From Owenia fusiformis (taxonomy: Eukaryota), in the NCBI GenBank assembly GCA_903813345.2, contig CAIIXF020000001.1:23064001-23128000 (forward strand): 64,000 nt of DNA, in the 5' to 3' direction. Every line of letters starts with the position of its first letter. Position 1 is the stretch's first letter. The position numbers and the translations under genes are program-made. Shown one piece after another: positions 13,576-35,335 of this stretch. The notes under the pieces are model-generated. The model made no database searches. It had not been told where the DNA came from and worked only from the letters and a program-made list of their open reading frames with translations.

Positions 13576-13946
13576 TGACGTAAACAAACTGACGCGATGT
13601 GATTGGATTATAAATAAGAGGAGTGCATTACAAGAAAAGAAAGAGATAAATGTCATACATCCCTACAATTTGACAACAATCATAACGTATATTCATTAAT
13701 TAGTATTTTATAGATTCAAATATGTGCAATTAAAAATGTTGATCTTTTTTACTTTTGTAAACTTTATCAAATAAAGTTAGGAATTCTCACTTATACATGT
13801 TCCGCCATAGCCATCGTGACCTTATTTCGCGGGAATTATGATTTCGCGCCATTTTTCTAGGGCTTTGTCCAATGCTATGTTGACACCCTGAGAGGAAAAT
13901 TTCGATACGAAAGAAAGAAAAATAATCGCATTTTCTAGTGATTCAG
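13576..13946 (+). promoter_or_regulatory. Probable E2F gene promoter and non-coding first exon
   Basis: E2F-consensus sites TTTCGCGGGAA (13825-13835) and TTTCGCGCCA (13842-13851, overlapping YY1-like CGCCATTTT). CRE-like TGACGTAA (13576) and TGACGC (13590), inverted CCAAT (13602), TATAAA (13609). Strong donor CAG|gtgaga after 13946; the next exon's acceptor (16775) lies just upstream of the ATG. Confidence 0.65.
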
Positions 13947-15714
13947 GTGAGACATTTAATTATATTTATTAAGAATATAGACTTTAGGATATAGGTCACA
14001 TTTATATGCTAAATTGGTGTGTCGATCGCTGCAATTTCACTTAGATCTGGACAATGTTATTCCAATGAAAAAATCTTGAATGAAAGTTTTGCCTAAATTT
14101 GAGCAATGGCTGCCATTGGCATTGAAATTGCAGTGTAGTTGTTATGTTTTTATATAGAATACCAGCTACCATATATTTGGATACATCTTTGGAGCATATT
14201 GTTATGTACTTGTTGTACCTTAAAATTGGGAAAGATCGTGTTTAAATGTCTTACAACCAGAAACACCACAATGAAACAGCTGTCAATAAATTGTGGTCAG
14301 TGTCATGGTGATGATTGATGTTTCTTTGTGTATATAATGTATTACATCTACATATGCAACACGTCGTCGGTCATTTATCATTTCTTCAATATAAGTGCTA
14401 GGGTTTATTTCATTCAATTTTTACAGATAATGCCAACAGTCACTGATTATAAATAGGCACACAATAAAACCATGCTTGTTCTTTATCAAGACTTTAGCGA
14501 GCAGATCATGAATTGGTGAGGATGTGACCACATTGACAGGTCTGTCATGTTGACAATTGGTTGATAACTAATTATCCTATGTCACAAGTGATTTACCAAT
14601 GTCCTTGACTTGTGCCATCGTAAACATTACCAAATCAACATGACTTATGTGTAAGAGAAGATGGATTATAAAACATGCCAAGCCTTCCACCCACACTCAC
14701 GAAAGCTATCAAAGCCCACTCCTTGTTAAAAAGTAGTCCACCTTGATAAGCTAACGAGTTACAAATACATTTATGAAAACTACATTGAGTTGTACTGTAA
14801 GTGTTGAAGTATATGGAATATAACTATACCATATACTGTAACTCTTGTTGAACGTTAAATGTCCACCTCAGGGATCAGATAACAACTTGAGATTTGGATT
14901 ACAAGTTACAACCCTCAAGCTCAAAGTGACAATTTTAATATTGAATAAAAAAATCAATCAAACAAAAGCTCAGGAATAAAAGGCAGATGGTATCAGAAAA
15001 ATAGGTCTTTTGAATAGCCTTTAATTAAATGTAATTAACAAGAAAAAATGGACAGCATTGTTTTGATCTGGCCCCTGAGTTGGAAAATATTGCACATGTA
15101 CTTAAAGCCCTTTAAACATTTAAATTGTATAGCTAGACAGTTGAAAAGCCTAACAGCTGATTGTCTAGTATCGGTGGTAAGCAGGTGTTTGGAACACTCC
15201 TGCTTTGTTCAGCTTTAATTTACTAGATTTAAGTAAAGATGGCCTTATTTATATCTACATTTAAGTTTTTTTTAGATTCTGATGTTTTTGTATTGAGTTC
15301 ATGTGTTAAGTTAGTTTAGTACCAATCATCACCTTAGGCTTATATCATCCGTATACAGTATATGTATTTAAGATAAGATAAAATAAGTGATGATTTACTT
15401 GACTTAACTCCATATGATGTTTGGGGATACCAATATGTCTTTCTGTTGTACACTACATGTAAAATAGGTTTGCATAAATGTACATGAACTATCTATGTGC
15501 AATGATCAGCTGCCATTTATGGTTTTGGTATATAATTCTCAATTATGCATTTATTTTTTATTTTTAGCTTCACTTTAAATTCATTTGTTGAGTGCAGTAT
15601 GCAAGTTCAATTCAATTCAATTCACTTTATTTCAAATGTTTCAAGTCATAAAAACTACTTTTGCGAGAGGGTACCTACCTGGATATGTTTTTTATGTTGC
15701 TTGTAGGTTAAAAA

Positions 15715-16600
15715 TAAATGCACTTGTTGCATTTCTAGTCTAAAAATTAATGCACTTGTTGCATTTTTAATCTAAAAATTAATGCACTTGTTGTATTTCT
15801 AGTCTCAATTATGTACTTGTTGCATTTCTAGTCTCCATTTCTAGTCTCAAAATTAATGCACTTGCATTTCTAGTCTCAGAATTAATGCATGTGTTGCATT
15901 TCTAGTCTCTAAATTAATGCACTTGTTGCCTAGTCTCAGAATTAATGTACTTGTAGCATTTGTAGCCTCAAATTAATGCACTTTTTGCATTTCTAGTCTC
16001 AGAATTAATGTACTTGTTGCATTTCTTGTCTCAAAATTAATGCACTCGTTCCATTTCTAGTCTCAAAATTAATGCACTTGCATTTCTAGTCTCAGAATTA
16101 ATGCATGTGTTGCATTTCTAGTCTCTAAATTAATGCTTTTGTTGCCTAGTCTCAGAATTAATGTACTTGTAGCATTTGTAGCCTCAATGCACTTTTTGCA
16201 TTTCTAGTCTCAGAATTAATGAACTTGTTACATTTCTAGTCCCAAAATCAATGCACTTGTAGCATTTGTAGCCTCAAGTTGTTGCACTTTTGCATTTCTA
16301 GTCTCAGAATTAATGCACTTGTTACATTTCTAGTCCCAAAATCAATGCACTTGTAGCATTTGTAGCCTCAAGTTGTTGCACTTTTTGCATTTCTAGTCTC
16401 AGAATTAATGCACTTGTAGCATTTGTAGCCTCAAGTTGATGCACTTGTTGCATTTCTAGTCTCAGAATTAATGCGCTTGTAGCATTTGTAGCCTCAAATT
16501 AAAGCACTTGTTGCATTTCTAGACTCAGAATTAATGCACTTGTAGCATTTGTAGCCACTGTTTGTAGCCTCAATTTGATGCACTTCTTGCGAGTTCTAGT
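15715..16600. repeat. ~30-33-bp degenerate minisatellite (E2F first intron)
   Basis: Unit aattaatgcacttgttgcatttctagtctcag repeated more than 20 times, with variants. Confidence 0.9.
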
Positions 16601-16776
16601 CTGAATTAGTACACTTGCTCAATTTCTATATTCATTATGAAATGAATAAATTACTTTAGAAGTATTTATTTATCATCTCTACTAAAATATTGATATTCAC
16701 AGTATCCACAATTTATCACAGAAATACTCCTTCTTGGGTAAGGCTGGTATGTTTAAAATCTTTGCTTATTTGTAGG

Positions 16777-19700
16777 ATGTCTAGCTACGGAGGAGGAACT
16801 CTTCACCAGTCCTTCAACAATTCAGCCTCGACATCCTACATCAAATCTGAGCTTGACTGTTCGTCATTCATCAAGAATGAGAAAGGAGCCTATGGGTCGC
16901 CAACCCACCAGCAGCTCATGTACCTACCTAGTGTTTATGACAGTGGAGAGACGATCGTTGTGAATCCTAGTAGTCTTACATCAAGCCCGGGCTACACTCC
17001 TGGCCCTAGCTATGTATCCAACTGTAAACCTGCACTTGGAAGACCACCCCAGGTAAGCATGTTACTCATCGCTTTCTTCAAAATTCATTTATCACTGACA
17101 CATATTTATTTAGGAATAACCACAATTGGTTGGTCTAATTTGAACATTTGATTAGTAGGTTCAGATAGACCAGACTAAAAAAGTCCAAATGCAATTGCCG
17201 TATTCGTTGTTCCCTCTTCAAAAGATGAGACACAAAAGATTTTCCTTATAAGGTCAAAAATATTTCCCATGATGCAATTCGCGGAGAAACAAATTCATAC
17301 TTCCTTGTTTTCCCCCCATAGGTTTAACATGGGGATTTTCACACCTATTTTTCAATCGATATATTCGTTCGTATTCCCGTATGGGATGGGAGTACAGAAA
17401 AAAATTTCAGAAATGATTGATCTCCTTTTCATCTTAATATAACACATATTTTTTCATTGTTTTGATTCATAGCTTGGTGTAAGTGATGATTAAAAAGTGA
17501 GAAAATATTGGGGAAGAGAAGGTCACATGATCAGTTGACTAGTCGCCATATTGAAAAAAATAATTTCATTTGACTTTCAACACTTTCATTCCAATCTTAC
17601 CACAAACTGCAACATTATTGCAACAACAGAACAAAAGTACTCATCTTCAAATTGCATAATAGAGTTACGTTGAAAACCCCTTACGTCAAACAACTTAGCA
17701 GTTGACCATAGAAGATGCACCGCAATTATCTAGGCCAATCGGTTCAGTGTCTGAAAGCAAATCTATTGTACTCCTTTCCGAATTTTATTGTTCATTATAC
17801 AAACTTTTCCTGATTATACTCGGTATACTGATTAAGCAATGACAAAGAAAAATACTTCTGATGGTGTCATTGTTTTTTTATTTAGCATGCGGGTGTAAAA
17901 ACAAAATGGCGCAGTTAGTTTGATTTAGAACTTTCAGGTCACGCAAATAGCTACGCGAAATGTACCGTTGGAAAATATTGACCAATCACTTTGTCCTTTT
18001 TGAGGACTTTTTAAGTAAATATATCCGTACCTTCTCGATTAAAGAGCGAACCACGAAAAGGCCTAATTAGAAATAATTTTGATTAACTTCATTAAAAATC
18101 CAAAATTCAGTCAAATTGATATTATATTTGAAATCTACAGGTAAAATTACATCTGGAAATGTGGTTTATTGACTTTGAAAATTTGATTTATTTTGAGAAT
18201 GTGACTTCTAGGTCGGGGAGATTCCCTATAATCCTCATGTTATAAAAGCACAAAAAGTGAAATATCTTTTTTTTTCTTGTATTGGACAGATACTATTTTC
18301 TTTTACTGAACATATTTTGATTTGTATAACTATCAGATACATAAAGAGTAATATGAAAATTGAATCACTAAAACTGATGAATATTCAAGTTCATGGGAAA
18401 TTTCTAATGCCCGAATTAGCCGCCTTGTGATGAAACTAGTAAGTATGGGATCTGGGTTATTATTAAGTTATTGTTGTAGTCTTGCTTCAAACCCTTGTTA
18501 CTCCAGCCCAGGCCCGTAGCCAGGGGGGGTTCGCAGGGTTCGGGCGAACCCCCCCCCCTGGCCAAAAATTCTTTCAAAATCATGCAATTTTTGACCATTT
18601 TGAGCACTTCTCTAGTGATTTTAGCCTAATTTGGTCCAAAATTGTCAAATGTGAACCCCCCCTGGAAATTTTTGAAAATTGAACCCCCCCTTGGCAAATC
18701 CTGGCTACGGGCCTGCTCCAGCCCCTAAATACATCACCTAAGATTTGATGCAGATTAGTTTTGTGGTTACATTAGAAAAAAAGAGTTGTCATACAACATT
18801 ACTACTCTGCTTTCTTACAAATTACCAATGATTTTTGTTAAAAACATTTCTGTCTTCAACTCTCATTTAATATTACTATATATATATAGCATCTCAAGAC
18901 AAGGTTTAGAGTTTCAATCTTGGATGAGGTAATATGTTGTTTTTTGTGTTCTTTTCTTGACTGTTCATTTTTATCTTTTTTAGTTTTTTATTTTATTTTA
19001 GTTTAGACTGTAGTGTCACCATTATTCCATCAAGTAGTGGTGACATATTGTACAAGGAGTGGTGACATATTGTTCTAGTTCTATCATTTTTGTGACTGGT
19101 GTTAGTGTTGTTGGTTGACATACATGTATATGTTTTATCAAAAATTAAGAGAGGTGCAGGGGTTTCACTAGAAATTCCGACAACAGGCTATATAAATGAA
19201 AACAACAGGTTATATTAATGGAAATCATAAATTAAACATGGAAAAGTTGAAAAATCCCTAAAAACAACAGGCGATTTTGTGAAAACAACCGGTGAAAATC
19301 GCCGGTTGCATGCTGCTAATGAAAGCCCTGAAGGTGTTTGTTTATAATTAAACTATGAATTTAGTTATTTATATAAACTAAAAACACAAATGGCAACATT
19401 ATATATGAAACAACACAATTCAGCAATCACCCATTTAAGCAAGTAAAGATTTTCTCCTTCATGAGTCAATATGTTATTGTGTCTACAGAGATCACGATAG
19501 TTGAAAAAACTTGTTAGCCATTGTGGCTAAATCTTCCAAAATATTTTTAGCCAACCAAAATATGAATTAGCCATTTTGAAAAACCGTAAAAAAGGGAATT
19601 CGCAATAGAGGTGTCACGGTCCAAGAAAATTTCGGTACTGTACGGAACGGTACAAATGGTCTCAACACGTTACTTTCGGGACGGGACAGGACAGAATATT

Positions 19701-22700
19701 AAAAATGATGAAATGTCTGATGATGACAGTTTCACTTTCAGTTTCACTTTTCAAAATCATATTCAGGAATAAAAAAACGTCCATTAAAATTGAATGTAAA
19801 GCATCTGCCGCGAATGTGATCGGCATTTCACATAGTCTGCACGGTGTTATATTACCAATTCGTTTACCTTGTGATATCGGAGTCCCAAAATACTTCCAAA
19901 CTGCCGACTTTTTCGACTTAGATGCCGGCTCGATTTTTCAATTTCTTTCCTACATCCGGCATACTGATAATGCACTAGATTTGCGAACGACGATGAAGAA
20001 ATTTACGAACAAGCATTACCATCTACCTGAAATCGCGGGTCCGTTAATAACACTTTTCAATGCAAAGAAGTGTAATCTAGGTACGAGGTAAGTGAAAATA
20101 TTTCAGAACGAAATCGGAGGTGTTCCTCGCTATTTATACACGTTTTTATGCATTTTAGTGAAGGAATCTATGTACCGATATTAACCCTTTCTGTCCCATG
20201 TCCCGAACCGAAGCATCTGGACCTAAATTCGGTCCAATATCGGGAAGCCGTGACACCTCTAATTCGCCATAACTGCGAAATACCTTTACATATTTTTCGC
20301 CACCTCTTTCGAAAATTCGCAATTGGCGAATGGCGAACGTCTACCGTGATCTCTGGTGTCTACTACGCAGGATGCTGCATGACAACTGGTTATTATTATA
20401 GCTAGAATAATGTGAATTAATAACCAGTCATCTCTACAGCATTAAAGCAAGTGGGTGCAGCACCCACTTGAGATGTTGAAAACAGGCTTGCACCCTCCTG
20501 AAAATCGAAAATGAGTAAAATCATGAAAAATTAAATGACCAATTTTGTCTGTATTGTGAAAATTAGAATTTTGCAATAACTTGAGAAAATATCCTGTGGA
20601 GAACACAATGATAACTATTAACTATCTACACAGTTTATTTATGACATGTGTTTAAATACTTATGATGCATAAATGGTAAAAATATATTTCTTTGTAGGCA
20701 AAGCGTAAACTGGAGTTGGAGCCTGTATATCAGAATGACGGTTTCAAAACCCCAAAGGGCAGAAAAAGACTGAGAACCAATTCAGGCTGTAACAGCCCAA
20801 AGGGTGAGTATATTTTCATTTTATGACACCACCACAAGTGGTGCATGTTAATGCCTTATTTATTAAAGGTGCAACAATTAGTGCAGGGGAGGCCATTCAA
20901 TGATCATCGACCAGAATATATTTCAGTTTGGATATTTCATCAAGACTAACATGTATTTTTATTATCTACAAAGAAACCCCCTGGATGAACATTAATTCAG
21001 CTGATATTCCTCTTGAAACGTGGTGAACCTCAAAAATCTATAAGTGGGACTCCCTTTATAGAAGCTTTGAACTGAATTTACACTTCTTAATGCTGAAATT
21101 CATAGTTTATCCATACATTTTAAGAAAATAGGTATGTCAAAGAAGATGTTAAGCCAAATATTGACCTGATAACTCAGAAAAAATTTCTCTCTACAGTCCT
21201 TGTTGCCCCTTTAATAGTAGCTACTAGAAGCAAGATGATGATACCAATATCCTTTAATTAAACCAAAGCAGATTAGAGCAAAATTTGAAACCAGTTGTGG
21301 ACATGAAGAAATATTTAAGTTTGTTGTTTGAAAAGAACTATCCATGGAAGGAAGGGCACAAGGGTGTTCCACTGCAATTTATTATGTGCGATACCTTTAT
21401 GATATTTTATGGAAGACAGACCCAGAGACAACTAATTAAAGCCTTTAAGGCTCAGCTGGAAAGTAACATTTTGGTAAAAAATTGCTATACCTGCACATGT
21501 TATTTTCTGGTACAAAATTAAGTATGAAGGCATATGTGTATTTCCTTGCTTTTTTCAGGAAAGTATCATTACACTGTCTACTTTTAATAAACCTGGAAAA
21601 AGGTCAATGGTAGCTCCTGTGTTGTCTGGAAACTTTGAAAGAAAATTTGGAAAAATAGGAAGTGTGAAATATCAGAATTTGATCATATTGTTGGTGTCTT
21701 CGAGACAGTTTGTATTCCTATCTTAAAGGTCCCTCTCCTGAAGTCAACCTAAACCCATTGATATCTTTCTTAAAAATATGCAACATCTTCTGATATAATA
21801 CCCGTGGACTAAAGATCAAGAGGGTATTTCTCATCTTTTCCCACAGTTTCAAAGCTAGTGTTGCATGCTAGATAAGTTGGACATTTAATGAGAGATGTCA
21901 TGCAACACAAGTTTGACAGTATTGCAGGACAACACAACACTTATGATTAATTCCCATATTTGTCTCTAAAAGGAGAATTCAATGGGCTTTCACTAAAATT
22001 CCAAAAATAGTAAAGTGTTACAAAAAAATCAAAAATCCTAAAACGATGGACTGTATAAAAAACTCCCCTATTTTACTGAAAATTGCAATTCTGCACTATA
22101 CATTACTCTAGGAAATCCTGGAGAGGGCATTGTAGAAGAAACATCACTTAAGTTCACCTTGTCTTTGGTTGGTTCATATTAGGATTTGGAAAAGATCACA
22201 AATTCACAATCAAAATTAACTTATTTGATGCCTTAGATCAGGGCCTTCAATATTAAGAAAGTTGCCATGGTATTTCATAATAGACCAGAGTCAACATTCA
22301 TACATACATACAGAGCTTGAGTAAAGTGCTTCAAAGTAGAAATATGTGAACAGTCATTACAGATACACTAAAGAAAAGAAAACATGTTCAAATGTTAAGA
22401 AAGTTGCCATGGTATTTCATAATAGACCAGAGTCAATATTCATACATACATACAGAGCTTGAGTAAAGAGCTTCAAAGTAGAAATATGTGAACAGTCATT
22501 ACAGATACACTAAAGAAAAGAAAACATGTTCAAATGTTAAGAAAGTTGCCATGGTATTTCATAATAGACCAGAGTCAATATTCATACATACATACAGAGC
22601 TTGAGTAAAGAGCTTCAAAGTAGAAATATGTGAACAGTCATTACAGATACACTAAAGAAAAGAAAACATGTTCAAATTATGTCAACAGTTAGAATTGTTG

Positions 22701-25700
22701 TTGTTCTTATTAACCAAATAAAAGAGAGCATTTGAACATTAAAATTGCAATCAAGGAAAAAGTTCAGAAAAGTGGATAAAGGGATTAAGATATGACATCA
22801 ATATTGACGTAATTAGTAAGGAGAGTTACACACCTGTTGTTAAATAGTTACAGGAATTGCCTCACCCCCTCCCCCAAATCGCCCCTTCCCTGAATTCCTC
22901 CCCCCTTCCCCCAGAACCCCCATCCCCCAACCCAATCCCAGCAGACACCTTCCATTATAATCTTAGAACATAACCAGACATACTTAACACAGGGGCATGT
23001 GTTATTATTTTTATCAGATTGCTCCAAGTGAAATATCACTTCAGATTAAATGCAACCTAGACTCTCTTATCTTTACTGAGAAGAGCATTATTATCATCTC
23101 CTTAAACACAAATGATATCAAGATTTTAAAATATGCAGTTTCAATTTAAGTTATGGACACAATTTTAATTATGTTCATTTCTGTTTTTCTATATAATTTG
23201 ATTTTCACGAATTCATTGTTTCTTGAATTGTAATCTGATTGGAGGAGATTAAAATTATGTGAGCCAATCAGATAAGAAATATCTACAGGATATCAGTATA
23301 TTTTGTTGAAATGCCTTTAATAAACATTATGCAATTATTCACCAAGCAATTTTTTAAAATATGAATTAAGATAAAATTAAGAATGTCATATTTGCAATCA
23401 GTCACTAGTGGCTGGTTAATTTACCGTAGTTGGCACAATATTTTTGTTAACACCATGGTAGCACAGTCTGACATTTAGAGTAACTTCTCAGGTGGGGGAG
23501 CTTTTCAACTTTCATGGGGAGAACTGGCAAACCTTCCCTAGCAATTAGTACTTTGAGGCTCATTTTAAGAGATACTAATTAGTTCATTTTTCTCAGCTTG
23601 AGGAACAAGTTGATTGCATATTAGCTTTAAGTGTAAGAAGTTTAGCCTTAATACATACAAATGAAAATTAGCATATTTGAATTCTTATATAAAGCATCAA
23701 TACATGTAGAGTATAAGTAAACCTTAAGAGGCTTATATGTACATATGTATGTATATAATACATTGGAATCACTTGCCAGGGAGAACTGGACCAGTCCACA
23801 TCTGCACACACAAGGAAAGATTATTTAAGAGGCCAATGAATAATAAAGATTCTCCTATCTACAGCACTGATTAGGGGAAACATCTTGAGAGTTCACTGAG
23901 TGAATGTAGTAACATACTAGAGGTGTTAGATTTTGATAGATTTGGGAATGTGATAATTGTTGCTTATCATCTCGTCAACTCAGTGGTGGATTTCAGAGTT
24001 CGGGACAGACCTATCTTTGAGTCTTATATGTTTGTGAGTGCTATACTGAAAGTGGAATTCATTTGGTTAGCAGAATATACAGAAGCAAATAGTGCTGGTG
24101 AAGACTCGAACCTTAAGAAGATTTTTTGGGATCTCAACATAAAACTGCAAAGAGCAAGTGACTTAGTAACATTTTAGAATCGACTGTTTTAGTAAAAAGT
24201 GAAATTTTAGTTCATTCTTGGAAAAGTGTACTGGCGTTTTAGCAGGAACAATTATTTTCTACACTTTGATCGTGTAGGATACAATCGAATTACAATGGCG
24301 AAAGGACGGAATAGGCGTGCGACTAGAAACTTCGGGAATGTTATACATTCGCAGAACAATCAATCGCCATCTGATGATGTAAAATACAAGAACATAGTTG
24401 GGATTCTCTCCAATACTGCAAAAGGAGGAAGTGTTTCTACTGACAATGGTGTGTTTATGATGCCTGGAATTGCGCAGACCAATCTTATTAACAATACCCT
24501 ATCACACCCAGTGGTACTCAATGGATGTGACCCATCACAGGCGCAACATCTAGGAACCGCCATCAGTTACCAAATGATTCTTCCAGGTTACACCACCCCG
24601 AATACTCAACACCATAGCAACAATACAACAAATTCAAACTTACCAGTTCTCAACACCATGCTCAATATGGGTTATAATCAGACCATTGAGGACCTTATAC
24701 CAAAACATAAGAATGAAACTAGCAAATTGAATAAAACATCTAGTCTGAATCTGAATGGGAAATCTCTGCCAACAGGCCCAAGAAACCACCAGATGGAAAA
24801 GCAAGCTCATGTAAAATCGTTCCAACCAACCTTGAAGGATGTCTTCAAGAGCAAGAAACGCAAATCAGATGTACTGGATGAGGTTAAGAGCTTGCGTAAG
24901 ATGCAACAGATGGTTAATATTGCAACCAAAGAACAAGGCCATGGTGGTCCAGTTAAGAAACAACATGGTATGACATATGTCACAGATCTACAATAAAGAT
25001 AGCCCCTTGCGTACTATTGACTTCATGTTGCGAAAAGGTTTTTTGTCAGATGTTACTGATATGTGAATGATCTCTCAAGATTTCATTGTGGAGATGGGAT
25101 TTTGCAAAACTGTCAGACAGAAAATCTTAAGATTATCATGAATATTTCAAGGAAAATCAAAATCGAAGTATTTTCTGAATTTATAGACATGAAAGGTATG
25201 CAAAAATATAATAATTTTTTGATTGAATGTGTGTACATGTATTATGAATGCAATAAATAATGTATAATCTTATGTACATTGCAGTGAAGTCACCACTTGA
25301 GAAGACCAGATATGACACATCACTTGGCTTGCTTACTAAAAAGTTTGTTGGACTGTTGAGGTCATCTCCAGATGGGGTAAGGCATTTTCAATTAAATGTT
25401 TTTTACTTCATTCTCAACATTAGGCAAGGTTTTTCACTTCATTCTCAACATTAGGCAGGGTTTTTCACTTCATTCTCAACATAAGACAAGGTTTTTCACT
25501 TCATTCTCAACATTAGGCAGGGTTTTTCACTTCATTCTCAACATAAGACAAGGTTTTTCACTTCATTCTCAACATTAGGCTAGATTTTTCACTTCATTTT
25601 CAACATAAGGCAAGGTTTTTCACTTCATTCTCAACATTAGGCTAGATTTTTCACTTCATTCTCAACATTAGGCAGGGTTTTTCACTTCATTCTCAACATT

Positions 25701-28700
25701 AGGCAGGGTTTTTCACTTCATTCTCAACATAAGACAAGGTTTTTCACTTCATTCTCAACATTAGGCAGGGTTTTTCACTTCATTCTCAACATAAGACAAG
25801 GTTTTTCACTTCATTCTCAACATTAGGCTAGATTTTTCACTTCATTTTCAACATAAGGCAAGGTTTTTCACTTCATTCTCAACATTAGGCTAGATTTTTC
25901 ACTTCATTCTCAACATAAGACAAGGTTTTTCACTTCATTCTCAACATTAGGCAGGGTTTTTCACTTCATTCTCAACATAAGACAAGGTTTTTCACTTCAT
26001 TCTCAACATTAGGCTAGATTTTTCACTTCATTTTCAACATAAGGCAAGGTTTTTCACTTCATTCTCAACATTAGGCAAGGTTTTTCACTTCATTCTCAAC
26101 ATTGGGCAAGGTTTTTCACTTCATTCTCAATAATAGGCAAGAGTTTTCATCTCATTCTCAATAATAGGCAAGGCTTAACTCTTAGTTCTAAACATTAGGA
26201 AAAGGTTTTCTCTTCATTTCCCAACAGTATTAACAACACTTCTATAACAGATTGATTTCAGTATAACTCCTAAATAAATATGAGTAAATGTTCCCAAATC
26301 ATACCTGAATAGAATGCCCTTATTTAAACTTTTAACTCTTAGCATTTGAGCTTATCAGTTCAATTGTTGAGTGTAGGATGACAAGATTTTGTTACAGAAA
26401 TACAGGATATTTAGGATAAACATCCTATCAATTACTCCTAATTAATCAAATGATATGTTGAACAAATAAAATTTTGTATAACCCAAGTGGTTTGATCTTC
26501 ACATGTAGTTTTTGTATTCATGATAACATCTTTAATTTTGTATTTGAATCAACTTTTCATTTTTGATCAACAGGATAAAGTTGAAACAACTTAAGTTTTG
26601 CATCAGAATCAGAAACTTTGCAAAAGAATAGATGTCAAATTTATGAACATTTTTATATGGATTCATTTCTGGATAACAATCAATTTCATGCATGATTGCA
26701 TAATACTTAACATAACTTGTTAGGTTTAAACTCTGTATGACCCATGTGGGCTATTCTTAATTGAGCAGAATTACAGTTTTGGCAGGATTACAATTACTTA
26801 AGCTTAACTATTTGGACCTTTAAATCCCAAGGTTTCAGCATTGTTATAAGGTGCCCTATTAATCTAAAAAGTAGATCAATCCAATATTTTTACATTACAT
26901 GTGTGCACAATTGCTGAGATCAATCAACAATCATTCATTCATTTCAATTGAATTAATTTGAATCAAATAAAAGAAAATCTCCATGGATATAAGACCTTTT
27001 ATGCCATTTTAGAAATATCCTGTTATTTCATTTTCAAAGTGGCTTTCATGATTACTTTTCATTGTTTGCAAATTTTGAATTCGTCTTAACTGTTACATAA
27101 ATAGGATTAATACCTGGGTTTGTATGCATTGATCTTATATGTTTATCAAGTTTCTATGGATTCTAAACTTTAAATAGCTCCACATTACACTTGGTGTATG
27201 CACAATGTACATGTATATTTAGAATAAGTAAATATGTACATGTACATTTAGTTTGCATTCAAAGTCTATCACATCTCATTCTTTTCATGAGGAGTTCTGT
27301 TTCTATTTGATCCTTTGAATGGAATCTAAGAATAAAATCATAAAAGACTGTAAATTTTTGAAAATCTTGTTAATTTTGTCTGCTATTTGTTTTGCTTAGA
27401 GGGTTCCGATTAGCATCCCGTATAAAAACAATATGGCGGCTCTAGGCGAATCAACTGGATCAGTCCATTTTTAAGAAATAAGGGGAGTTCTGTAAAATCC
27501 AGTTTATTGAAATTGTCTTTGAGATAAAGTAATCCGTTTATAATGATTTTGAAAACGTTATCCAAAGAGTGATTGCGTTCAAAGAATACATGTACAACAG
27601 CTAAAATCCTTGCATTAGAAACCGGATTGTCTTGCTTTGTTTCATTTGTAAGATATTTCATATGCCAAGTTGTGTGCTATTACGTTATGGGGAAATTTAG
27701 ATGCCAATTTTTCCTTATTATACACAAATAGATGATCCTGAAATTTCGCCCATAAATGTGGAATTGATTTGTCAAAATAAAAATCACCCTTTTATAAATG
27801 TGTGACGATCTATAATATACTTATGCTATATAACAGTTAGAGGTGTTGACACAACGACCTCAAACCTGTGAACCCTTGAGTATTATTCCGGGATCGGGCC
27901 TTTTATACTAAACGGTGAGCAACACCAGAAACGAGCGTTCGATTTGCTAAACGATATGCGTCACCCTTTAAAACACATTTTGAAACTGGTGTATTTTTAA
28001 CAATTCTCCCACATTGTGGCGATTTTTTCAGAAGAACACAATTTTATTTTTCGTGATTGAATTTTTGATATGAAGTAAATACCCTCTAACCTTAAATTTA
28101 ACTGTGGCTCGGATTTGTTAACATACATGTATTTTTGATAAAAAAGAGAGGAATTTGATTTGATGTGAAAATAGTTCAATTGGTATATCCATGCTAGAAA
28201 GTTTTGCATGCTATTCTCTGGATGAGTTTGTCACTATTTATCACAATTTCATCAGTATTCTAAAATGAGGGCTGCTTGTTGTCATACTTATGGAGGGGGG
28301 TGTATATCAACACCACTGAAATACTAGGGCTTTAAACCGACCCACGAGAGCCTGAAAGACCTTAAATAATTGTTTCAAATTTTTCTTCTTCAGGTGCTAG
28401 ATTTGAACAAAGCAGCAGAATATTTAGATGTCCAAAAGCGGAGAATATATGATATTACTAATGTACTGGAGGGAATCAACCTGATAGTGAAAAAATCAAA
28501 AAATAATATACAATGGAAGTAAGTGAAACATTTTAGTTATACAAACATAAGTTATATTATTGTTCTGCACATGTAACCTCGTATGTCCATTTTCGTATAG
28601 TGTGCTGGGGATTTGTTTTTTGGAGCAACTCATCTATTTATCAAATGTTAAATGTGAAATCAAGGGAAGGGAGGTATATCGATGGTAAAGTTCAGAAGCT

Positions 28701-31700
28701 TATATTATTGCAATATGAAAAGTGTAATATGGATAAAATGTAAACGGTGTCTCTAATTAGTCCAGTTAAATATTATATGGACAATGTTTGCTTTTGCTTG
28801 AGTTAATGTTTAATAGATAACTTTTAAGAAATATCCTTCACGTTAACGTAAATGACCTACTTATACTGCCTCCTAAGGCTAGGATATTTAGTAGATTTGG
28901 TTTTCATATCCCTCCTTATAGTACTCACATTATTTTTATTAGAGATAAAAGATTGACCCGTATCCTTTCTTGGCCTAACCTAAGGGTCTTATCAATGTAA
29001 AGTATTTCAATCAACAATCTTCGAACCTAAAATCAAACAAACTTACATAACAATGCCCCATATCACCTTTTATGATCACTTACTTAAATGGTTAATTAAA
29101 CACTCCCCTCCTCGTATAGGCCAGTATTTTTAGTTCAACATGAAGCTTTGACTAGTGTGAAATCATGGTGACCAAGGTATCATTTTTACCCTTGGTGGCC
29201 ATAATATGCCTGGCTGCGTATGAAGCTCCAAGGAAAATTTTTTATGTACTTAACCAAGTGAAAAGGGCACAGTAATATCTGAGAGATGTTACACACAAGT
29301 TCTCCAAAACGTGTGTCACATAACCTCTTTGTTGGTAATTGTTTTCATAAATTCCCATCACCTATACATGCTATCCCACATTGTTAATGGTTGAATAAAT
29401 ATCCCCAACCTGTACAGAGTGAGCCACATTATTAACATTTGATGTATTAATGTTTCAGAGGTGGAAGCAGTGTCACACCATTAGGAACCCAATCTGTAGG
29501 AGTCAGTGCCCAACATGTAGATCTGCACTCAGGTTAGCGATAAGGCCTTAGTTTGTTCTAAGTTACATTTCTGAATTAAAGGTATCTACAGAGTGAGATC
29601 CAAACCAAACCTAATTTTGGAATTGCTATATATGTTTGACTATTGTTTGTTCCACTCATGAAATTTCAAGAAGAGTCCACCATAATCGAGAGTTGTTTCA
29701 AAATTAATGGGTTGCATTTTTGGGGTCACCTTGTATTTTTTTTCACCAGGGGCCGTGAATTCGTACGATCCCCAATCCAATCCAGATAAATTTTATCTTC
29801 TGGGATAAATCTTGGATTACTAATCCGGATTATGATTTGGTGAATTCGTACGATCCGAGGATTATTAGGGGGAATCCCCAAGATTTATCCAATTTGCATT
29901 GGAATTCGGATAAAATTTATCCAAAAAGTAATCCACCTCAAGAGGTGGATTGAGATTTATCCTGAGATTAATCCGAGGATCGTACGAATTCACCGATTTT
30001 TGGATAAATTCTTGGATTAATCCCACAATGCATCATTACCATGACGAAATTTATCCGGATCGGATCGCGGATCGTACGAATTCACCGGCCCAGATTTTTC
30101 AACATTGCAAATCCACCAATTTTGTCAATATTACAAGTAGCCGCCAAATGTTCAAAACAGCTATACCCCAAAATAAGTAGCACCAAATTAAGTAGAAGTA
30201 CAGCAATTGTCTTGATTTTGTTAATACAATACATAATATAGCTTCTATATTATGACAAAGCTTTCTATGATCAAAAATATTTTCTACTATTTATAGATAT
30301 AGCTGACCTTGAAGCAAAAGAGAATAAAGTGGATGAGTTGATCCGTAACTGTAGCCTTCAGTTAAAGATGCTTACGGAAGATGAAGAAAATGCCAAAGCT
30401 GCGTACGTCACATATACAGATATACGTGGAATACAGTCATTTGAAGAACAGACTGTTGTCGCCATTAAAGCTCCCCCAGAGACCAAACTAGAAGTCCCAG
30501 ACCCCTCAGATGTACGTATTTCAAAAATTATTTATATCTAATGCAGTGTTTGACTTATACACCAGACCGACAGATACTGGCGGTCTGATTCTTTTAGGGG
30601 TAGGCAAGTTTCACCTACCCTTTCTGGCTACATTTCAGGGGTATTATATAGATGAACATACTAATGCCACAATTGCCTTTGTTTGTCAAGGATAAAATAT
30701 TTAAGTTCAGGGTGGCTAAAGGATGTTTGCTATACCATGTAATATTAAAGTTGGAAAGCCAACACATTTTCCCAATGTTACTGATATTGTATCATTGGAA
30801 AGCTAACACATTGCTCCTGATGCTACTGATATTGTATCATTGGAAAGCTAAGGCATTGATCTTGATGTTACTGATGTTGTATCATTGGAAAGCTAACACA
30901 TTGATCTTCATGTTACTGGTATTGTATCATTGGAAAGCTAACACATTGATCTTGATGTTACTGATATTGTATCATCGGAAAGCTAAGGCATTGATCTTGA
31001 TGTTACTGATTTTGTATCATTGGAAAGCTAACACATTGATCTTGATGTTACTGATATTGTATCATTGGAAAGCTAACACATTTTTCTGTTGTTACAGAGT
31101 ATACAGATCTGGTTGAAAAGCACTCAAGGTCAAATAGAGGTGTACTTATGTCCAGAGGATGGTACTCCACAAAATAGCGGGACAGAAGACAACTCCAACA
31201 GTTCATTTAGCTCAGAAGATTCCACAGATAGCTACAAAGGTGAGTATCTACATGAGAACATAAAGGAACTAATTTGATCATTTGTTTTATGTAAGCTTTG
31301 AGCTTTCAAACTGCATTTTAGCATTAGGTTCTAGACTTAACATTTCTGCAAAAAACTCTCGTTACAAACAGACATGAGCCTGGCCATGGGAAAACCGGTC
31401 TTATCACAAAAATTAAAATTGTGCTACAGAGCCAAATATGTGCCCAAGATTAAGAGGAAAATGTGCTAAATTAAAATCCGACTTTTTGGTCTAAATATGC
31501 AAGGAAAAATCGTTAAGTCATAAGTCATGGCTCATTTGAAAGGTCTTTTTGTGCTTTTTAAGATTAACAACAACAAAAAACATTGAAAAATCTGTGATAA
31601 GACCCCTTTTCCTGTGTTTTCTCAGCTGTAGCTGTTAACCGCAAAAACCTGCATGATTATGAACAATCATACACTTTGATTTACTTGTATATAAAATTAA

Positions 31701-31970
31701 AGTTAACGATCAATGATAACAATTTCCATTTTATATGTATTTGCAGATGATAAAAGCAAAGTGCGGAATGCCCTCTTGGAGGAACAAGATATATCTCACC
31801 ATATGGACAATCTCCTGCCACAGACTGAGGACCAACACTCAGATTTTGTGCATTTAGAACCACCTTTATCTGAGGAAGACTTTAACTTTGCCCTAGATGC
31901 ACACGCTGAGGGCATATCAGACCTGTTTGATACATATGATATAAAAGATATGAAGAGTCTGGTTGAGTAG
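16777..31970 (+). CDS. E2F3: Activator-class E2F transcription factor (E2F1/2/3 orthologue), ~417 aa
   Basis: Exons 16777-17052, 20698-20803, 25285-25376, 28394-28518, 29459-29532, 30297-30511, 31098-31239, 31747-31970 (1254 nt, in frame). Motifs: [16 protein letters not shown] (cyclin A RxL), [16 protein letters not shown] and [15 protein letters not shown] (DNA-binding domain), AYVTYTDI...AIKAPPET (dimerisation/marked box), [18 protein letters not shown] (Rb binding). The symbol is the closest vertebrate label; the gene is probably co-orthologous to E2F1/2/3. Confidence 0.95.
18509..18715. mobile_element. hAT-like MITE
   Basis: Perfect 16-bp TIR caggcccgtagccagg and perfect 8-bp TSD ctccagcc (18501-18508, 18716-18723). 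A decayed relative lies at ~41340-41455. Confidence 0.9.
19157..19330. mobile_element. Short degenerate MITE
   Basis: caggggtttcactag / ctaatgaaagccctg imperfect TIR; aggtg occurs on both flanks. Confidence 0.5.
19486..20355. mobile_element. hAT-like MITE hosting a nested element
   Basis: TIR cagagatcacgatag / ctaccgtgatctctg; flanking direct repeat gtgtcta. Confidence 0.8.
19606..20261. mobile_element. Nested hAT-like non-autonomous element
   Basis: Perfect 14-bp TIR tagaggtgtcacgg / ccgtgacacctcta; 8-bp TSD attcgcaa/attcgcca. Confidence 0.85.
22253..22677. repeat. 142-bp tandem repeat, 3 near-identical copies
   Basis: ttaagaaagttgccatggtatttc starts at 22253, 22395 and 22537. Confidence 0.92.
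24278..24967 (+). CDS. Putative alternative E2F coding exon (cassette 24278-24967, or alternative first exon from ATG 24295)
   Basis: Lies in the longest ORF of the window (24226-24996), non-repetitive. Acceptor ttttctacactttgatcgtgtag| at 24277, ATG in ACAATGG context at 24295, donor CATG|gtatga after 24967. Both junctions are phase 1, matching the flanking E2F exons. Confidence 0.65.
25400..26175. repeat. 31-bp minisatellite, ~25 copies, just after an E2F donor site
   Basis: Unit aggtttttcacttcattctcaacattaggca, with recurring higher-order variants. Confidence 0.93.
27400..27967. mobile_element. ~570-bp Kolobok/T2-like MITE (TTAA target)
   Basis: Ends agggt...accct followed by ttaa (left flank ttag). 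Near-identical copies at 50455-51026 and 55928-56499 have ttaa on both sides; truncated copy 54321-54465. Confidence 0.8.
29750..30090. mobile_element. Palindromic PIF/Harbinger-like MITE
   Basis: TIR gggccgtgaattcgtacgatcc / ggatcgtacgaattcaccggcc with 3-bp flanks cag/cag; a second internal inverted pair of the gaattcgtacgatcc motif. Confidence 0.75.
30745..31082. repeat. 45-bp minisatellite, ~7 copies, just before an E2F acceptor
   Basis: Unit atgttactgatattgtatcattggaaagctaacacattgatcttg. Confidence 0.92.
31373..31617. mobile_element. Degenerate TIR element
   Basis: ggaaaaccggtcttatcaca ... tgtgataagaccccttttcc imperfect inverted ends. Confidence 0.45.
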
Positions 31971-32209
31971 CAGGTTTGGGTGGGGTTGTTGAAATAGGGT
32001 ATTTATATGAGTATAAATTAAAAGTAACTACAGTGTCTTTGCATTGGATCTCGCATTGTGCCATGAGGGCTGTAATGTACTCTCTGTACACTGGTATATA
32101 CTTCCAGTACACCAGCATGCTATTCATACACCAGTATGTCACTACAGTAGCCTGCTTCTGGTTTATCGAGACATGTTACCTGTGTGCCAGGATATTACTT
32201 CTACTTCAG

Positions 32210-32487
32210 TATGTTACTAGTACACCTTCATGTTACCAGTACACCAGCATGTTACCAGTACACCAGGATGTTACCAGTACACCAGCATGCTACCAGTACA
32301 CCAGCATGTTACTAGTACAGCAGGATGTTACCAGTTCACCAGCATGCTACCAGTACACCAGCATGTTAACGGTACACCAGCATGTTACCAGTACACCAGC
32401 ATGCTACCAGTACACCAGCATGCTACCAGTACACCAGCATGCTACCAGTACACCAGCATGTTACCAGACACCAGCATGTTACCAGTA
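32210..32487. repeat. 19-bp minisatellite in the E2F 3' UTR
   Basis: Unit ccagtacaccagcatgtta, ~14 copies, with degenerate copies from ~32100. Confidence 0.9.
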
Positions 32488-33890
32488 TACCTGATGGTTC
32501 AAATAATAGCTGGAGTTTGAAAGTTAACAACAATGTTCAGTTATAGAATTTATTTACAACAATTAGAGCCTAACTTTGTATGGGGCCAATATTTTCTGTT
32601 TTGGTGTTTAAAGTTATGTTCTTTCCAATGATCTATACATGTAAAGTTTGCGTGATCAATGAAAATTATTAAATGGTATGATCTAATGGTCAAAGGAATG
32701 CTGTAGACTTGGACCATATTATTCTATACTTACATGTGTATGGTGCAAGTATAGCAAAATACCAATGGGGTTATGTCAAAAAGTTCTCCCATGTACCTGC
32801 TAATCAAAATAAGCATTTGTACAGATATCAATATGAAAGGGGTATTTTGTTTAACTGTTACATGGGGGTGATAATATGCTCAAAACATGTAAAACGTTAT
32901 GTTATAAGCATACAGATAATATAACTATATATATATATATTTAGACCAGAGTCTTATTATTTATAGATCCATTACTACTACTTTATTTCATACGGAAATT
33001 TATAATTACAAGTACTCTCAAAATATGTAATAGAAATTTTTAGCACTCATTTTGTAAATGTTGCATGTACACTGTACATAGCTGAACTTCTGTGTCCTTA
33101 AACAAATAGTTAATAGTATATTTATTTATTATTTAAGTATCCAGCCATTGCTAATGATGAGAAGTGCTTTCTAAATGAGAAAAAACTATGTTTAATTGAA
33201 AAAACGAAATTGATTGCAAAATGATTGAGTGGTAAAAATATGCGCTTTGATTTTTTTATTCAGCCATTTGCCAATTTTTGAGATTTTGGTCCTTTTGTAG
33301 AGTTATCAGAGAGAGAGGTTTTTGATATACTGAAAATAATAAAAACTAAAAATACTTTTTAAATTCCATTTGGTGGCCCTGATATAGTGAATCTTATTTC
33401 CAGTTCAATTCTATTTATTGTGATGTCATTTTTTCTAATTTTAAATTACCTAAGGTAACAAACATTAGAATTAAAGATTTGTTCTTAAGTTTGTATGATT
33501 TCAAATGACATTTTCAAAAATTTTGCGAAGTTATTTTTCAATACCATTCTGTTTTTTTACATTATTTAGTGTATACTTTAATTCATAGATGTTGTTAATA
33601 GAGGGTGAGTGTCTAGAAAATTTTGATGTTTTCATGAAGAATTCAATATTTATGAAAGATTTCAACGTGCTAGTTTTGAATAGATTTGTGTTGTAAAGTA
33701 GTTGTTTGAAATATTGTCAACTACAAGCTGGGTTTGGGAGAACACTTTTCGTTACCATCCAGTAGAAAACAAATATTTATGTTAATTCCATCGTTTTTTT
33801 ATAGTTGGACATGATAGGGCACCTTGTTTGACTTCAACAGTGCCACTATGCTTATACAATAGCTGCAAATACTGTGTGCTAATCAATCAT

Positions 33891-34578: not shown

Positions 34579-35335
34579 AATATTGAAGATTACTATATTG
34601 AATTATTTTCTTTTGAATAATGAATAAATTGTAATGGAATCTCAAGACTTTTACAGTATTACAACCAGCGGGAAGATCTTGAATTCAGCATCTGAAAATA
34701 TTCCGATATAAAAATCTATTGATTAAAGGTCTTCAAGATATTTGAAGCCGTGTAAGTCTTAGAATTTTGAAATGTTTAGAAAATTCATACAATAGAGATC
34801 TATAAGAAATATGACCGGACCTAAAATATCTCAAAAATCATGGGACGATTTTCAAGAGACTAGATTACAATAGATTATTGCACAACATTCTGACACATAG
34901 CATCTAAAAAAACCTGTCTGTCTTTAGTTGCTCTGATTTTCTGTGCCAATCCTGCTGATCGAGTAGGCGGGCTTCCCATAAAAAAAGTTGACATACTTTT
35001 AAAAATAAAATGCCTTTGTGTTTCCTTAAATTCTCAATATTTTATATGATGATCATTTCTAATGTTATAAGAATTCATTTGTACGAACAACACCGTTGCT
35101 ATGCAGTTTATTGAGAATTTCTTTTAATAATTGATGTTTAAATCACGTGTTTGTTACAACAAATTTGATTCATCCGTTGACTTCACCAATTCTAAATCGA
35201 AAGTGCCCTATACTAAATTCCATGGCGATCTATGATGCAAGAAGATAGGGCCATGGTATACCATGATGATTGCACAAGATAAACCAAGTGCTGATCTGAG
35301 ATTTCATTAAGGTAAATTAAATGTATTTCTTCCAA

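Follow-up and report, generated by a model that had tools for sequence, protein, structure and literature searches.

An E2F1-3-type gene of Owenia fusiformis, contained in the 64,000-nt stretch of DNA analysed here (the window), very probably (at a probability of roughly 0.85) has two promoters, the inner of which yields a 514-aa isoform by way of its own first exon, without the RxL motif. The upstream promoter would give the canonical 417-aa protein, with KRKLEL and a basic stretch in exon 2, and a TATA-type promoter in intron 2, starting at ~23780, would give a first exon at 23780-24967 with a 224-aa N-terminus. This alternative exon would then be spliced in frame to 25285 to make the 514-aa protein, such that the DNA-binding, DP-dimerisation and C-terminal DLFD (RB-binding type) parts would be common to both forms. 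Public annotation already includes the two isoforms, though unnamed; in other words, the exon is not hidden, as the first-pass annotation of the window had described it. A search of the literature on Owenia fusiformis E2F, on alternative first exons of activator E2Fs and on E2F3b without the cyclin A-binding domain found no such isoform.

Exons of the canonical isoform and the candidate outer promoter

The exon chains in the window correspond exactly to two public Owenia fusiformis proteins: P0004 (514 aa, CAH1773745.1), which is the alternative-start form, and P0005 (417 aa), which is the canonical form with KRKLEL. The exons of the canonical form and the elements of its candidate promoter are as follows.

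13825..13849, + strand: candidate upstream (P1) promoter elements, proposed from sequence, with an E2F-like site at 13825-13835 (one mismatch) and an exact TTTCGCGC at 13842-13849
16777..17052, + strand: canonical coding exon 1, 92 codons (MSSYGG...ALGRPPQ), phase 0, with an acceptor directly before the ATG
20698..20803, + strand: canonical exon 2, with the RxL motif KRKLEL (20701-20718) and basic FKTPKGRKR; ends in phase 1
25285..25376, + strand: first shared exon and start of the E2F winged-helix DNA-binding domain; acceptor for both isoforms
28394-28518, 29459-29532, 30297-30511, 31098-31239 and 31747-31970 (with stop), + strand: remaining shared exons, with GT-AG borders

With its last base at 25376, not at 25377 as originally given, the DNA-binding exon measures 92 nt. 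Exons 28394..31970 supply the remainder of the DNA-binding domain, followed by the CC-MB dimerisation domain and, at the C-terminus, the DLFD block, which would act in transactivation and RB-pocket binding. Within P0004, E2F_TDP (PF02319) is found at aa 235-298 (E 6.5e-28; 96.7 bits, cut-off 25.7) and E2F_CC-MB (PF16421) at aa 320-412 (E 4.5e-35; 120.1 bits, cut-off 33.9), and DLFD is present in the C-terminal acidic block, as it is, somewhere in the final 60 residues, in 103 of the 120 proteins fetched.

The candidate P1 elements are followed by a CCAAT at 13869-13873 and then by a cag/gtgaga donor after 13946, which may mark a leader exon. There are three copies of the motif TTTSSCGC in the window where 1.33 would be expected, but 17 shuffles in 100 also have at least three, so that the count alone is not significant; it is the clustering of E2F-type elements near the candidate P1 that is suggestive. 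Only near the candidate outer promoter are such sites found (13825-13849). Elsewhere in introns 1-2 there are high-copy repeats, over which RNA depth reaches 395, as against 1-30 nearby. A minus-strand ORF at 19662-19937 was considered as a BED-finger and set aside, Pfam giving no family.

The intronic exon and its transcription

24295..24967, + strand: coding part of the alternative first exon, 224 codons plus 1 base (MAKGRNRR...PVKKQH), with the donor after 24967

The exon lies within a stop-free frame of 261 codons on the + strand (24211-24996). No ORF in the window is longer; the runner-up (188 codons) is inside a tandem repeat, and none of 100 windows simulated with a Markov-3 model has an ORF of such length (mean of the maxima 140.7, top 199). 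The first-pass annotation had called this ORF the longest in the window, on the strand of the gene and non-repetitive, and all three properties hold: TRF finds no tandem repeat inside it, and read depth over it, which stands in for copy number, is at the level of unique sequence. The sequence likewise confirms the strong context of the ATG at 24295 (ACAATGG), which is the first in-frame ATG after the upstream stop. Directly 3' of 24967 is the donor CATG/gtatga, in phase 1; joined at 25285, which is preceded by ...attgcag, the reading stays open, with no stop, and spliced reads agree with the earlier assignment of the donor's phase. Over residues 1-224 of P0004, identity to the ORF peptide (P0001) is 100%.

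Evidence from RNA comes from two stranded raw-read runs chosen by species label (X16 and X18) and from contigs with spliced cDNA (X1, whose kind was guessed). In a further run, X5, whose kind was also guessed, spliced joints are absent and introns are covered, so it may be DNA. The joint 24967>25285, which the first-pass annotation had proposed to seek in RNA, is present in 28 reads of X16, 113 reads of X18 and, at depth 48, a single X1 contig. For the canonical joint, 20803>25285, the corresponding figures are 13 reads, 21 reads and an X1 contig of depth 82.6, and for 17052>20698 they are 12 reads, 32 reads and one X1 contig. Expressed as a share of the joints into the DNA-binding exon, the alternative form accounts for 68% in X16, 84% in X18 and 37% in X1 (by contig depth); it is therefore the major mRNA form in two of the three informative runs. 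These shifting ratios between runs indicate a regulated choice of promoter. In the same vein, depth over 23925-24815 is 31-40 in X16 and 110-127 in X18, in a single orientation, and that in the exon 1 bin is 12.7 and 30.4.

Splicing bears on the suggestion that the ORF is an independent nested gene or the remnant of a transposon inside the intron. A long intronic ORF might be read in that way, all the more so given the high-copy repeats elsewhere in introns 1-2; the ORF is, however, spliced in frame to an E2F exon, has unique-sequence depth, and matches no Pfam family and no homologue. The joints refute this reading, which is left with next to no probability. The first-pass annotation had named a transposon or nested gene as the result that would tell against its proposal, and the ORF proves to be neither.

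The start of the alternative transcript and its surroundings are described by the following features.

23752..23758, + strand: TATATAA box of the intronic (P2) promoter, from a motif scan, 27-34 nt upstream of pile-ups of fragment ends
23779..23786, + strand: putative transcription start of the alternative transcript, from fragment-end pile-ups and a depth step
23780..24294, + strand: 5' leader of the alternative transcript, ~515 nt, of continuous depth
24276..24277, + strand: in-phase AG acceptor (possible cassette), from the phase of the sequence; no use seen

Fragment ends pile up at 23779 in X16 (9 molecules) and at 23786 in X18 (11 molecules), in reads that are not cap-selected. Depth is near zero upstream of ~23630 and then steps, in X16/X18, from 2.62/0.06 (bin 23331-23627) to 17.5/42.9 and on to 30.8/110, the step at ~23780 being confined to the orientation in which the E2F exons, too, are covered. 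Since coverage sets in abruptly at ~23780, some 30 nt 3' of the TATATAA box, the exon appears to have its own promoter in intron 2. The motif scan finds no E2F-type site around it, within 23000-24300.

The depth profile also bears on the form of the product. The first-pass annotation had put forward two isoforms, one of ~514 aa with a new N-terminus and one of ~647 aa with an insert, and had noted an acceptor at 24277 in phase with exon 2. The former stands, being identical to a public model and having its own joint and its own start. The latter would require a 690-nt cassette (24278-24967) between exon 2 and the DNA-binding exon, giving a 647-aa protein that keeps KRKLEL. The sequence does allow for it, in that AG 24276-24277 has the phase required by exon 2, which stops in phase 1 at 20803, and the cassette and its joined reading are stop-free. 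The joint 20803>24278 is, however, absent from the best 15 joints listed, which go down to 3 reads, a trace level among the 156 weaker ones being conceivable, and there is no 647-aa Owenia protein model among public proteins of 282-900 aa. Moreover, depth is unbroken from ~23780 through the acceptor and equal on either side of it (30.8 and 110 in bin 23925-24221, upstream, as against 31 and 124 over the ORF), which is what transcription running on from ~23780 would produce. The cassette is accordingly very improbable.

Translation of the 224-aa N-terminus, presumed in the two-promoter reading, has several features in its favour. The ORF has a codon score of +0.158 per codon in frame and of -0.28 to -0.48 in the other five frames; none of 500 intron chunks matches its in-frame score, and the codon usage of the 224-codon exon resembles that of the gene's other exons. 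Variation in the exon is ~3x lower than in introns, with 16 of 1112 positions differing from the window over the ORF and 142 of 2949 over intron 2 (Fisher p 8e-8), in contig pieces drawn from two mutually overlapping runs, one of them X5. It could nevertheless be argued that the transcript is real and its long ORF barely translated, the RNA being a regulatory or noisy product of an intronic promoter and the 514-aa model an artefact of annotation. Four upstream ATGs in the leader (ORFs of 12, 1, 1 and 49 codons, all ending before the main ATG) could damp translation; the peptide has no homologue, such that conservation is lacking as a test of function, and it is mostly disordered (mean pLDDT 46). 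Against this stand a 224-codon frame that is open right up to a donor in the phase which the next exon requires, a codon score that is positive in the coding frame only, the deficit of differences relative to the flanking intron, the strong context of the main ATG and the greater abundance of the isoform in two RNA runs. Overall, a barely translated ORF is improbable.

The 224-aa N-terminus

No relatives of the peptide, for which a search among related genomes had been proposed, were found with any method used. The word-indexed search covered proteins of at least 123 aa: in the range 123-392 aa it returned no relative, and at 393-2000 aa the sole match is the Owenia protein itself. HMMER against 1.84 billion representatives gave two matches of the composition type (E 2.9e-4 and 7.7e-4), to repetitive proteins of 2169 aa and 305 aa; Pfam gave nothing above threshold, the ESM Atlas no usable match, and a scan of metagenome contigs 54 pattern matches, of which none was confirmed. 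In the two-promoter reading the N-terminus is restricted to the lineage, and it may be young, a feature at the level of the species. An origin by duplication of exon 2 was also considered, given the resemblance of DVFKSKKRK to GFKTPK..KR and of MAKGRNRR to the MPRG...RR starts of other species; it is rejected at this sensitivity, as a profile of 96 canonical N-termini scores the peptide at -1.0 bits, a value equalled by 769 of 1000 shuffles.

Single-sequence AlphaFold2 gives no usable fold, with 169 of the 224 residues at a pLDDT below 50. The N-terminus is accordingly predicted to be mostly disordered, with one helix adjoining the DNA-binding domain. It is net basic, and its sole basic cluster, KKRK (aa 187-190), is a putative nuclear localisation signal which probably gives nuclear import of the 514-aa form. 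Two features can be placed on the DNA.

24823..24858, + strand: partial match to a PIP degron, by regex, aa 177-188, overlapping KKRK and 41 residues before the DNA-binding domain; a lead only
24862..24933, + strand: only confidently predicted helix of the new N-terminus, aa 190-213, with pLDDT 87-89 over blocks 191-210 (AlphaFold2)

The PIP match deserves some caution. Strict and core PIP-box regexes have no match in the new N-terminus, and the relaxed pattern that does match was set post hoc (9 of 20000 shuffles). In QPTLKDVF, the residues Q1, L4 and F8 fit the PIP box Q-x-x-h-x-x-a-a and the basic K at +4 is present; V replaces the aromatic at position 7 and KD stands in place of TD at 5-6 (K for T at 5). 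Portions of PMC3152358 set out the PIP degron consensus and describe working degrons without TD or aromatics. On this basis it may be conjectured, as something of a long shot, that the N-terminus carries a non-canonical PIP degron (QPTLKDVF + KSKK, aa 177-188) that would lead to PCNA/CRL4-Cdt2 destruction as in Drosophila E2f1, that KRKLEL would recruit cyclin A (and cyclin F) to the outer form, and that the promoter would pick the mode of shut-off.

Cyclin docking and comparison with other activator E2Fs

N-terminal docking of cyclin A/CDK2 is a hallmark of E2F1-3, and the DP partner is also acted on by cyclin A/CDK2. In the Owenia gene the RxL site is present in the 417-aa isoform (AKRKLEL, exon 2) and missing from the 514-aa isoform, as the first-pass annotation had anticipated: the alternative exon chain skips exon 2, and the sole [RK]xL-type match in the new N-terminus is a weak one, KSLP (aa 156-159), through which some docking is still conceivable. 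Among relatives, 120 were fetched and 106 examined, and a KRKLEL-type motif stands before the DNA-binding domain in 101 of these. The five exceptions are the Owenia 514-aa protein itself, a model with an unrelated N-terminus of ~290 aa, two with 11-14 residues upstream and one with KRKLNL; in other words, there is no other credible full-length model without the cyclin-docking motif among those examined. [quoted passage not shown] By sequence features, the gene is a member of the E2F1-3 (activator-type) subgroup, with a 514-aa isoform that is without the RxL feature of that subgroup. Because the motif is missing, the 514-aa form would not be docked by cyclin A/CDK2 (or cyclin F), and its S-phase shut-off would be different or absent; such an escape from docking we put at somewhat below even odds.

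The nearest parallel is mammalian E2F3. PMC6318215 and PMC1914394 describe an upstream and an intronic promoter, with separate first coding exons and common DNA-binding, dimerisation and RB-binding exons, state that 'E2F3a, but not E2F3b, is an E2F target gene', and describe E2F3b as not cell-cycle regulated and RB-bound. Like E2F3a/E2F3b, the Owenia gene has two starts and distinct first coding exons that run onto common exons, and it is a variant of the same two-promoter design. E2F-type sites only near the candidate outer promoter would parallel E2F3a as an E2F target. The cut point differs, however, since the E2F3b promoter is in intron 1, upstream of the RxL exon, whereas the Owenia inner start at ~23780 is in intron 2, downstream of exon 2. 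The products differ as well: as the first-pass annotation had stated, E2F3b keeps the RxL exon, and its exon in marsupial E2F3 isoform X3 (P0090) adds six residues before AKRRLEL, with docking motif and basic region kept, whereas the Owenia exon brings 224 unrelated residues and loss of the motif.

This parallel suggests another fate for the 514-aa form, namely that it is translated and yet does not escape, being E2F3b-like, outside the G1/S wave and mainly a partner of RB, with S-phase restraint exerted through DP phosphorylation, the RB family, atypical E2Fs or another docking site. It would fit with the inner promoter having a TATA box and no E2F site and with isoform ratios that vary between runs, as well as with what is described of E2F3b in PMC6318215 and PMC1914394. 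The parallel breaks at the RxL motif, however, which is retained by the E2F3b-like forms P0090 and octopus P0057 and not by the Owenia 514-aa form. This fate is tentative, and we consider it a possibility to be taken seriously, at perhaps one chance in a few.

Two further systems are of relevance to a possible escape of the 514-aa form from docking. Drosophila E2f1, like that form, is of the activator type and has a long N-terminal region before the DNA-binding domain, and it is controlled in S phase independently of cyclin A docking; part of PMC3420931 assigns its CRL4-Cdt2 destruction to a PIP box at aa 150-157 together with R161. The Owenia N-terminus has a partial PIP match, but no sequence relation to the fly protein was found, and the match fails two consensus positions. 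Engineered E2F1 mutants unable to bind cyclin A, like the Owenia form, have their DNA-binding and activation parts intact and the RxL site gone. They are laboratory deletions, whereas the Owenia form is a natural isoform, major in two RNA runs, with a new N-terminus instead of a deletion.

Part of PMC3420931 notes that the developmental role of cyclin A docking of E2F was not tested with dedicated mouse genotypes. If the 514-aa protein is made, the Owenia isoform pair would set an activator E2F that has cyclin docking beside one that does not, within a single gene, where a natural isoform exchanges just the cyclin-docking module for an unrelated 224-aa tail and retains the rest. Owenia fusiformis is an early-branching annelid for which a developmental time course and functional tools exist. 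Were the degron reading true, a single annelid gene would encode both known S-phase shut-offs of activator E2F, and the 224-aa N-terminus would be a recently evolved exon convergent on the solution found in the fly. Beyond this, the two-promoter design of vertebrate E2F3 occurs outside the vertebrates, at a different cut point.

The open frame and the two E2F forms

The plus-strand frame at 24211-24996 runs for 261 codons without a stop and is, as the first-pass annotation had it, the longest ORF of the window. It beats the top ORF of every one of 100 windows simulated to match the real one in third-order base statistics; those maxima averaged 140.7 codons, and the highest was 199. The earliest in-frame start is at 24295 (context ACAATGG), and the ORF is flanked by an AG acceptor ending at 24277 and a GT donor after 24967. 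Exon 2 of the gene stops at 20803 carrying one base of a codon, the remaining two being supplied by either 24278 or 25285 (the start of the DNA-binding exon), and the ORF exon likewise closes on one codon base. This match of phase lets the DNA-binding exon be reached without a stop whether it follows exon 2, the ORF, or exon 2 and the ORF in series; the phase arithmetic of the earlier annotation is correct throughout.

The 224-residue ORF peptide is identical (100%, full length) to residues 1-224 of a 514-aa Owenia fusiformis protein (CAH1773745.1, A0A8S4MYP4) recorded as 'unnamed protein product', such that the ORF exon is already publicly annotated. The canonical 417-aa Owenia form has its final 290 residues in common with this protein and starts with the peptides of exons 1 and 2, including AKRKLEL. 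Both forms were rebuilt exactly from the window by a script choosing GT-AG borders.

Coding exons of the two rebuilt forms (window positions, plus strand)
16777-17052, 20698-20803: canonical form only
24295-24967: coding part of the exon found only in the alternative form
25285-25376, 28394-28518, 29459-29532, 30297-30511, 31098-31239, 31747-31970: shared by both forms

The shared part holds the E2F winged-helix and CC-MB domains (Pfam), and the top relatives are E2F3-like, E2F1 and E2F2 proteins from molluscs, brachiopods, hemichordates, echinoderms, amphioxus and vertebrates. A literature search on Owenia fusiformis E2F and on E2F3b-like forms without the cyclin A-binding domain returned nothing on the alternative exon.

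The description of the ORF as non-repetitive also stands, Tandem Repeats Finder having found no array within it. The sole nearby array is a 31-nt repeat at 25398-26226 (26.7 copies, 87% matches), in the intron right after the first DNA-binding exon, which accounts for several long pseudo-ORFs in ORF lists. Further long arrays read as open frames at 30652-31116 (in the intron between shared exons 30297-30511 and 31098-31239), 32000-32520, 35316-36704 and 37500-38700. On the minus strand, at 40249-42965, lies a neighbouring gene with FG-GAP repeat exons (PF01839, E 2.7e-10 for 42780-42965), which forms no part of the E2F finding.

Transcription from within intron 2

Two roles had been proposed for the ORF, either a cassette exon (24278-24967, giving 647 aa) or an alternative first exon. 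Raw reads from two stranded RNA runs (X16, X18), together with contigs from two sets (X1, with spliced cDNA, and X5), were mapped over 16500-25395 and brought out three GT..AG joints of the E2F gene.

Joints of the E2F gene in RNA (plus strand)
17052>20698: 12 reads in X16, 32 in X18, one contig in X1
20803>25285: 13 reads in X16, 21 in X18, depth 82.6 in X1
24967>25285: 28 reads in X16, 113 in X18, depth 48 in X1

The last of these is the splice that the first-pass annotation had proposed as a check. The first mate of every ORF read is on the minus strand, as for exon 1 reads, so ORF and gene are transcribed in the same direction. Of all joints entering the DNA-binding exon, the donor of the ORF provides 68% (X16), 84% (X18) and only 37% (X1, by contig depth), isoform ratios varying between runs. 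The cassette reading is not borne out, since its joint 20803>24278 is missing among the 15 joints listed, besides which there are 156 weaker ones. Moreover, the depth in X16/X18 is 2.62/0.06 in 23331-23627, 17.5/42.9 in 23628-23924 and 30.8/110 in 23925-24221, and stays at 31-40/124-127 across the ORF; the transcript is therefore unbroken through the unused acceptor at 24277.

Pile-ups of fragment ends, at 23779 (9 molecules, X16) and 23786 (11, X18), are taken as the 5' edge of the RNA because there is hardly any signal further left, and a TATATAA lies at 23752-23758, 27-34 nt 5' of these pile-ups. Joints, onset of depth, fragment ends and TATATAA together point to the second of the two proposed roles: the ORF is the coding stretch of an alternative first exon, which is driven by a separate promoter inside intron 2. 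The leader is ~515 nt long and contains four upstream ATGs, every one closed ahead of the main ATG.

With a codon table from the gene's eight other exons, the ORF scores +0.158 bits per codon in frame and -0.28 to -0.48 in the five other frames, a score reached by 0 of 500 random 672-nt intron chunks (largest -0.117). X1 and X5 contig pieces, which overlap one another and leave six gap letters per ORF piece unresolved, show 16 differences from the window over 1112 positions compared in the ORF (1.4%) and 142 over 2949 in intron 2 (4.8%; Fisher p 8e-8). Read depth over the ORF is at the level of unique sequence, unlike that of the repeats at 18282-18875 and 20955-21845. Codon use, low variation, unique depth, length and exact phase all say that the ORF is coding, from which we infer its translation.

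In introns 1 and 2, the stretches 18282-18875, 19173-19469 and 20955-21845 have RNA depth of 100-395 in both orientations, with many loose ends and contigs; these transcribed repeats of high copy number are presumably mobile elements. Separately, the summed contig depth of X5 peaks at 245.8 in bin 23628-23924, that of the inferred inner start (neighbours 72.8 and 74.7), which could be due to a short repeat or library enrichment of the region. X5 may be DNA, since it has no spliced joint and its introns are covered.

The new N-terminus and the cyclin-docking motif

The 224-residue peptide has no relative among proteins of 123-392 aa, and matches only its own Owenia protein among those of 393-2000 aa; a set of 1.84 billion representatives yields two composition-type matches with E near 1e-4. 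There is no Pfam family above threshold, no usable match in the ESM Atlas and none confirmed in metagenome contigs. No relative is detectable by these searches, nor so far any sign of conservation. Duplication of a stretch of exon 2 ('DVFKSKKRK' resembling 'GFKTPK..KR') was considered and, within the sensitivity of a profile test, rejected: a profile from 96 canonical E2F N-termini fails to recognise the new one, 769 of 1000 shuffles scoring equally well, so the likeness is no evidence of duplication. Many invertebrate E2F3-like proteins (among P0007-P0071) begin MPRG/MPRK...RR, the Owenia canonical form MSSYGGG and the alternative form MAKGRNRR, homology of this last start to the first being unsupported by the profile test.

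In composition, the new N-terminus is 11.6% N, 9.4% K, 8.5% S and 8.0% T; basic residues (28) outnumber acidic ones (13), and a single KKRK cluster lies at aa 187-190. Single-sequence AlphaFold2 gives a mean pLDDT of 46 (169 of 224 residues below 50) and one confident predicted helix, aa 190-213, directly ahead of the DNA-binding domain.

A KRKLEL-type motif stands upstream of the DNA-binding domain in 101 of the 106 relatives surveyed (from the 120 best, 14 being dropped as unmatched by the regex for the domain start).

Relatives without the motif
P0004: the 514-aa Owenia form
P0046: 290-residue unrelated N-terminus, resembling a fused model
P0051, P0055: 11-14 residues upstream only
P0070: variant KRKLNL

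Judged on these models, the 514-aa form is the sole credible full-length E2F1-3-type member of the 106 without the motif. KSLP is the only [RK]xL-type match in its new N-terminus. Both P0090, a marsupial isoform of the E2F3b-like kind, and P0057, isoform X2 of an octopus protein, begin just ahead of the motif and retain it, the former as had been expected of an E2F3b-type form.

In Drosophila, a PIP box (aa 150-157, with R161) is described as bringing about the S-phase destruction of E2f1, mammalian activator E2Fs depending on cyclin A/Cdk2 instead (PMC3420931). Against the PIP-degron scheme outlined in PMC3152358 (Q-x-x-h-x-x-a-a, TD at positions 5-6, basic residue at +4), aa 177-188 of the alternative form fit at Q1, hydrophobic 4, D6, aromatic 8 and basic +4, and miss at positions 5 (K) and 7 (V). 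A relaxed pattern, picked after the match had been seen, occurs in 9 of 20000 shuffles. That this stretch is a PIP degron, as in Drosophila E2f1, is very unlikely.

Two promoters and a comparison with E2F3

Upstream, an E2F-like site TTTCGCGGGAA, one mismatch away from TTTSSCGC whichever strand is read, adjoins an exact TTTCGCGC (13842-13849) in a cluster at 13825-13849, downstream of which are a CCAAT (13869-13873) and then a cag-gtgaga donor after 13946. Given that coding exon 1 starts at an acceptor directly before its ATG (16776), 13825-13947 is a candidate non-coding first exon and candidate E2F-autoregulated outer promoter of the canonical transcript, although the count of E2F sites in the window is by itself not above chance. 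A motif scan found no E2F-type site within 23000-24300. An E2F-driven outer and an E2F-independent inner promoter would fit, as described for E2F3a/E2F3b (PMC6318215, PMC1914394).

The gene has two starts, each leading to its own first coding exon, and both forms have the DNA-binding, dimerisation and C-terminal parts in common. The 514-aa protein is presumably made and would be imported to the nucleus via its KKRK cluster, pair with DP and bind E2F sites; via the C-terminus that both forms share, it would respond to proteins of the RB family. It would not be docked by cyclin A/CDK2 or cyclin F, such that its activity would outlast that of the 417-aa form, or end differently.

The closest known arrangement is that of E2F3a/E2F3b, with which the Owenia gene shares its two-promoter logic. 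However, the inner promoter is in intron 2 in Owenia and intron 1 in E2F3b, the inner exon adds 224 unrelated residues rather than six, and the Owenia inner form loses the RxL/basic exon, whereas the E2F3b-like P0090 keeps the motif. The Owenia alternative exon is real at the RNA level, and its missing motif makes for a clear functional prediction.
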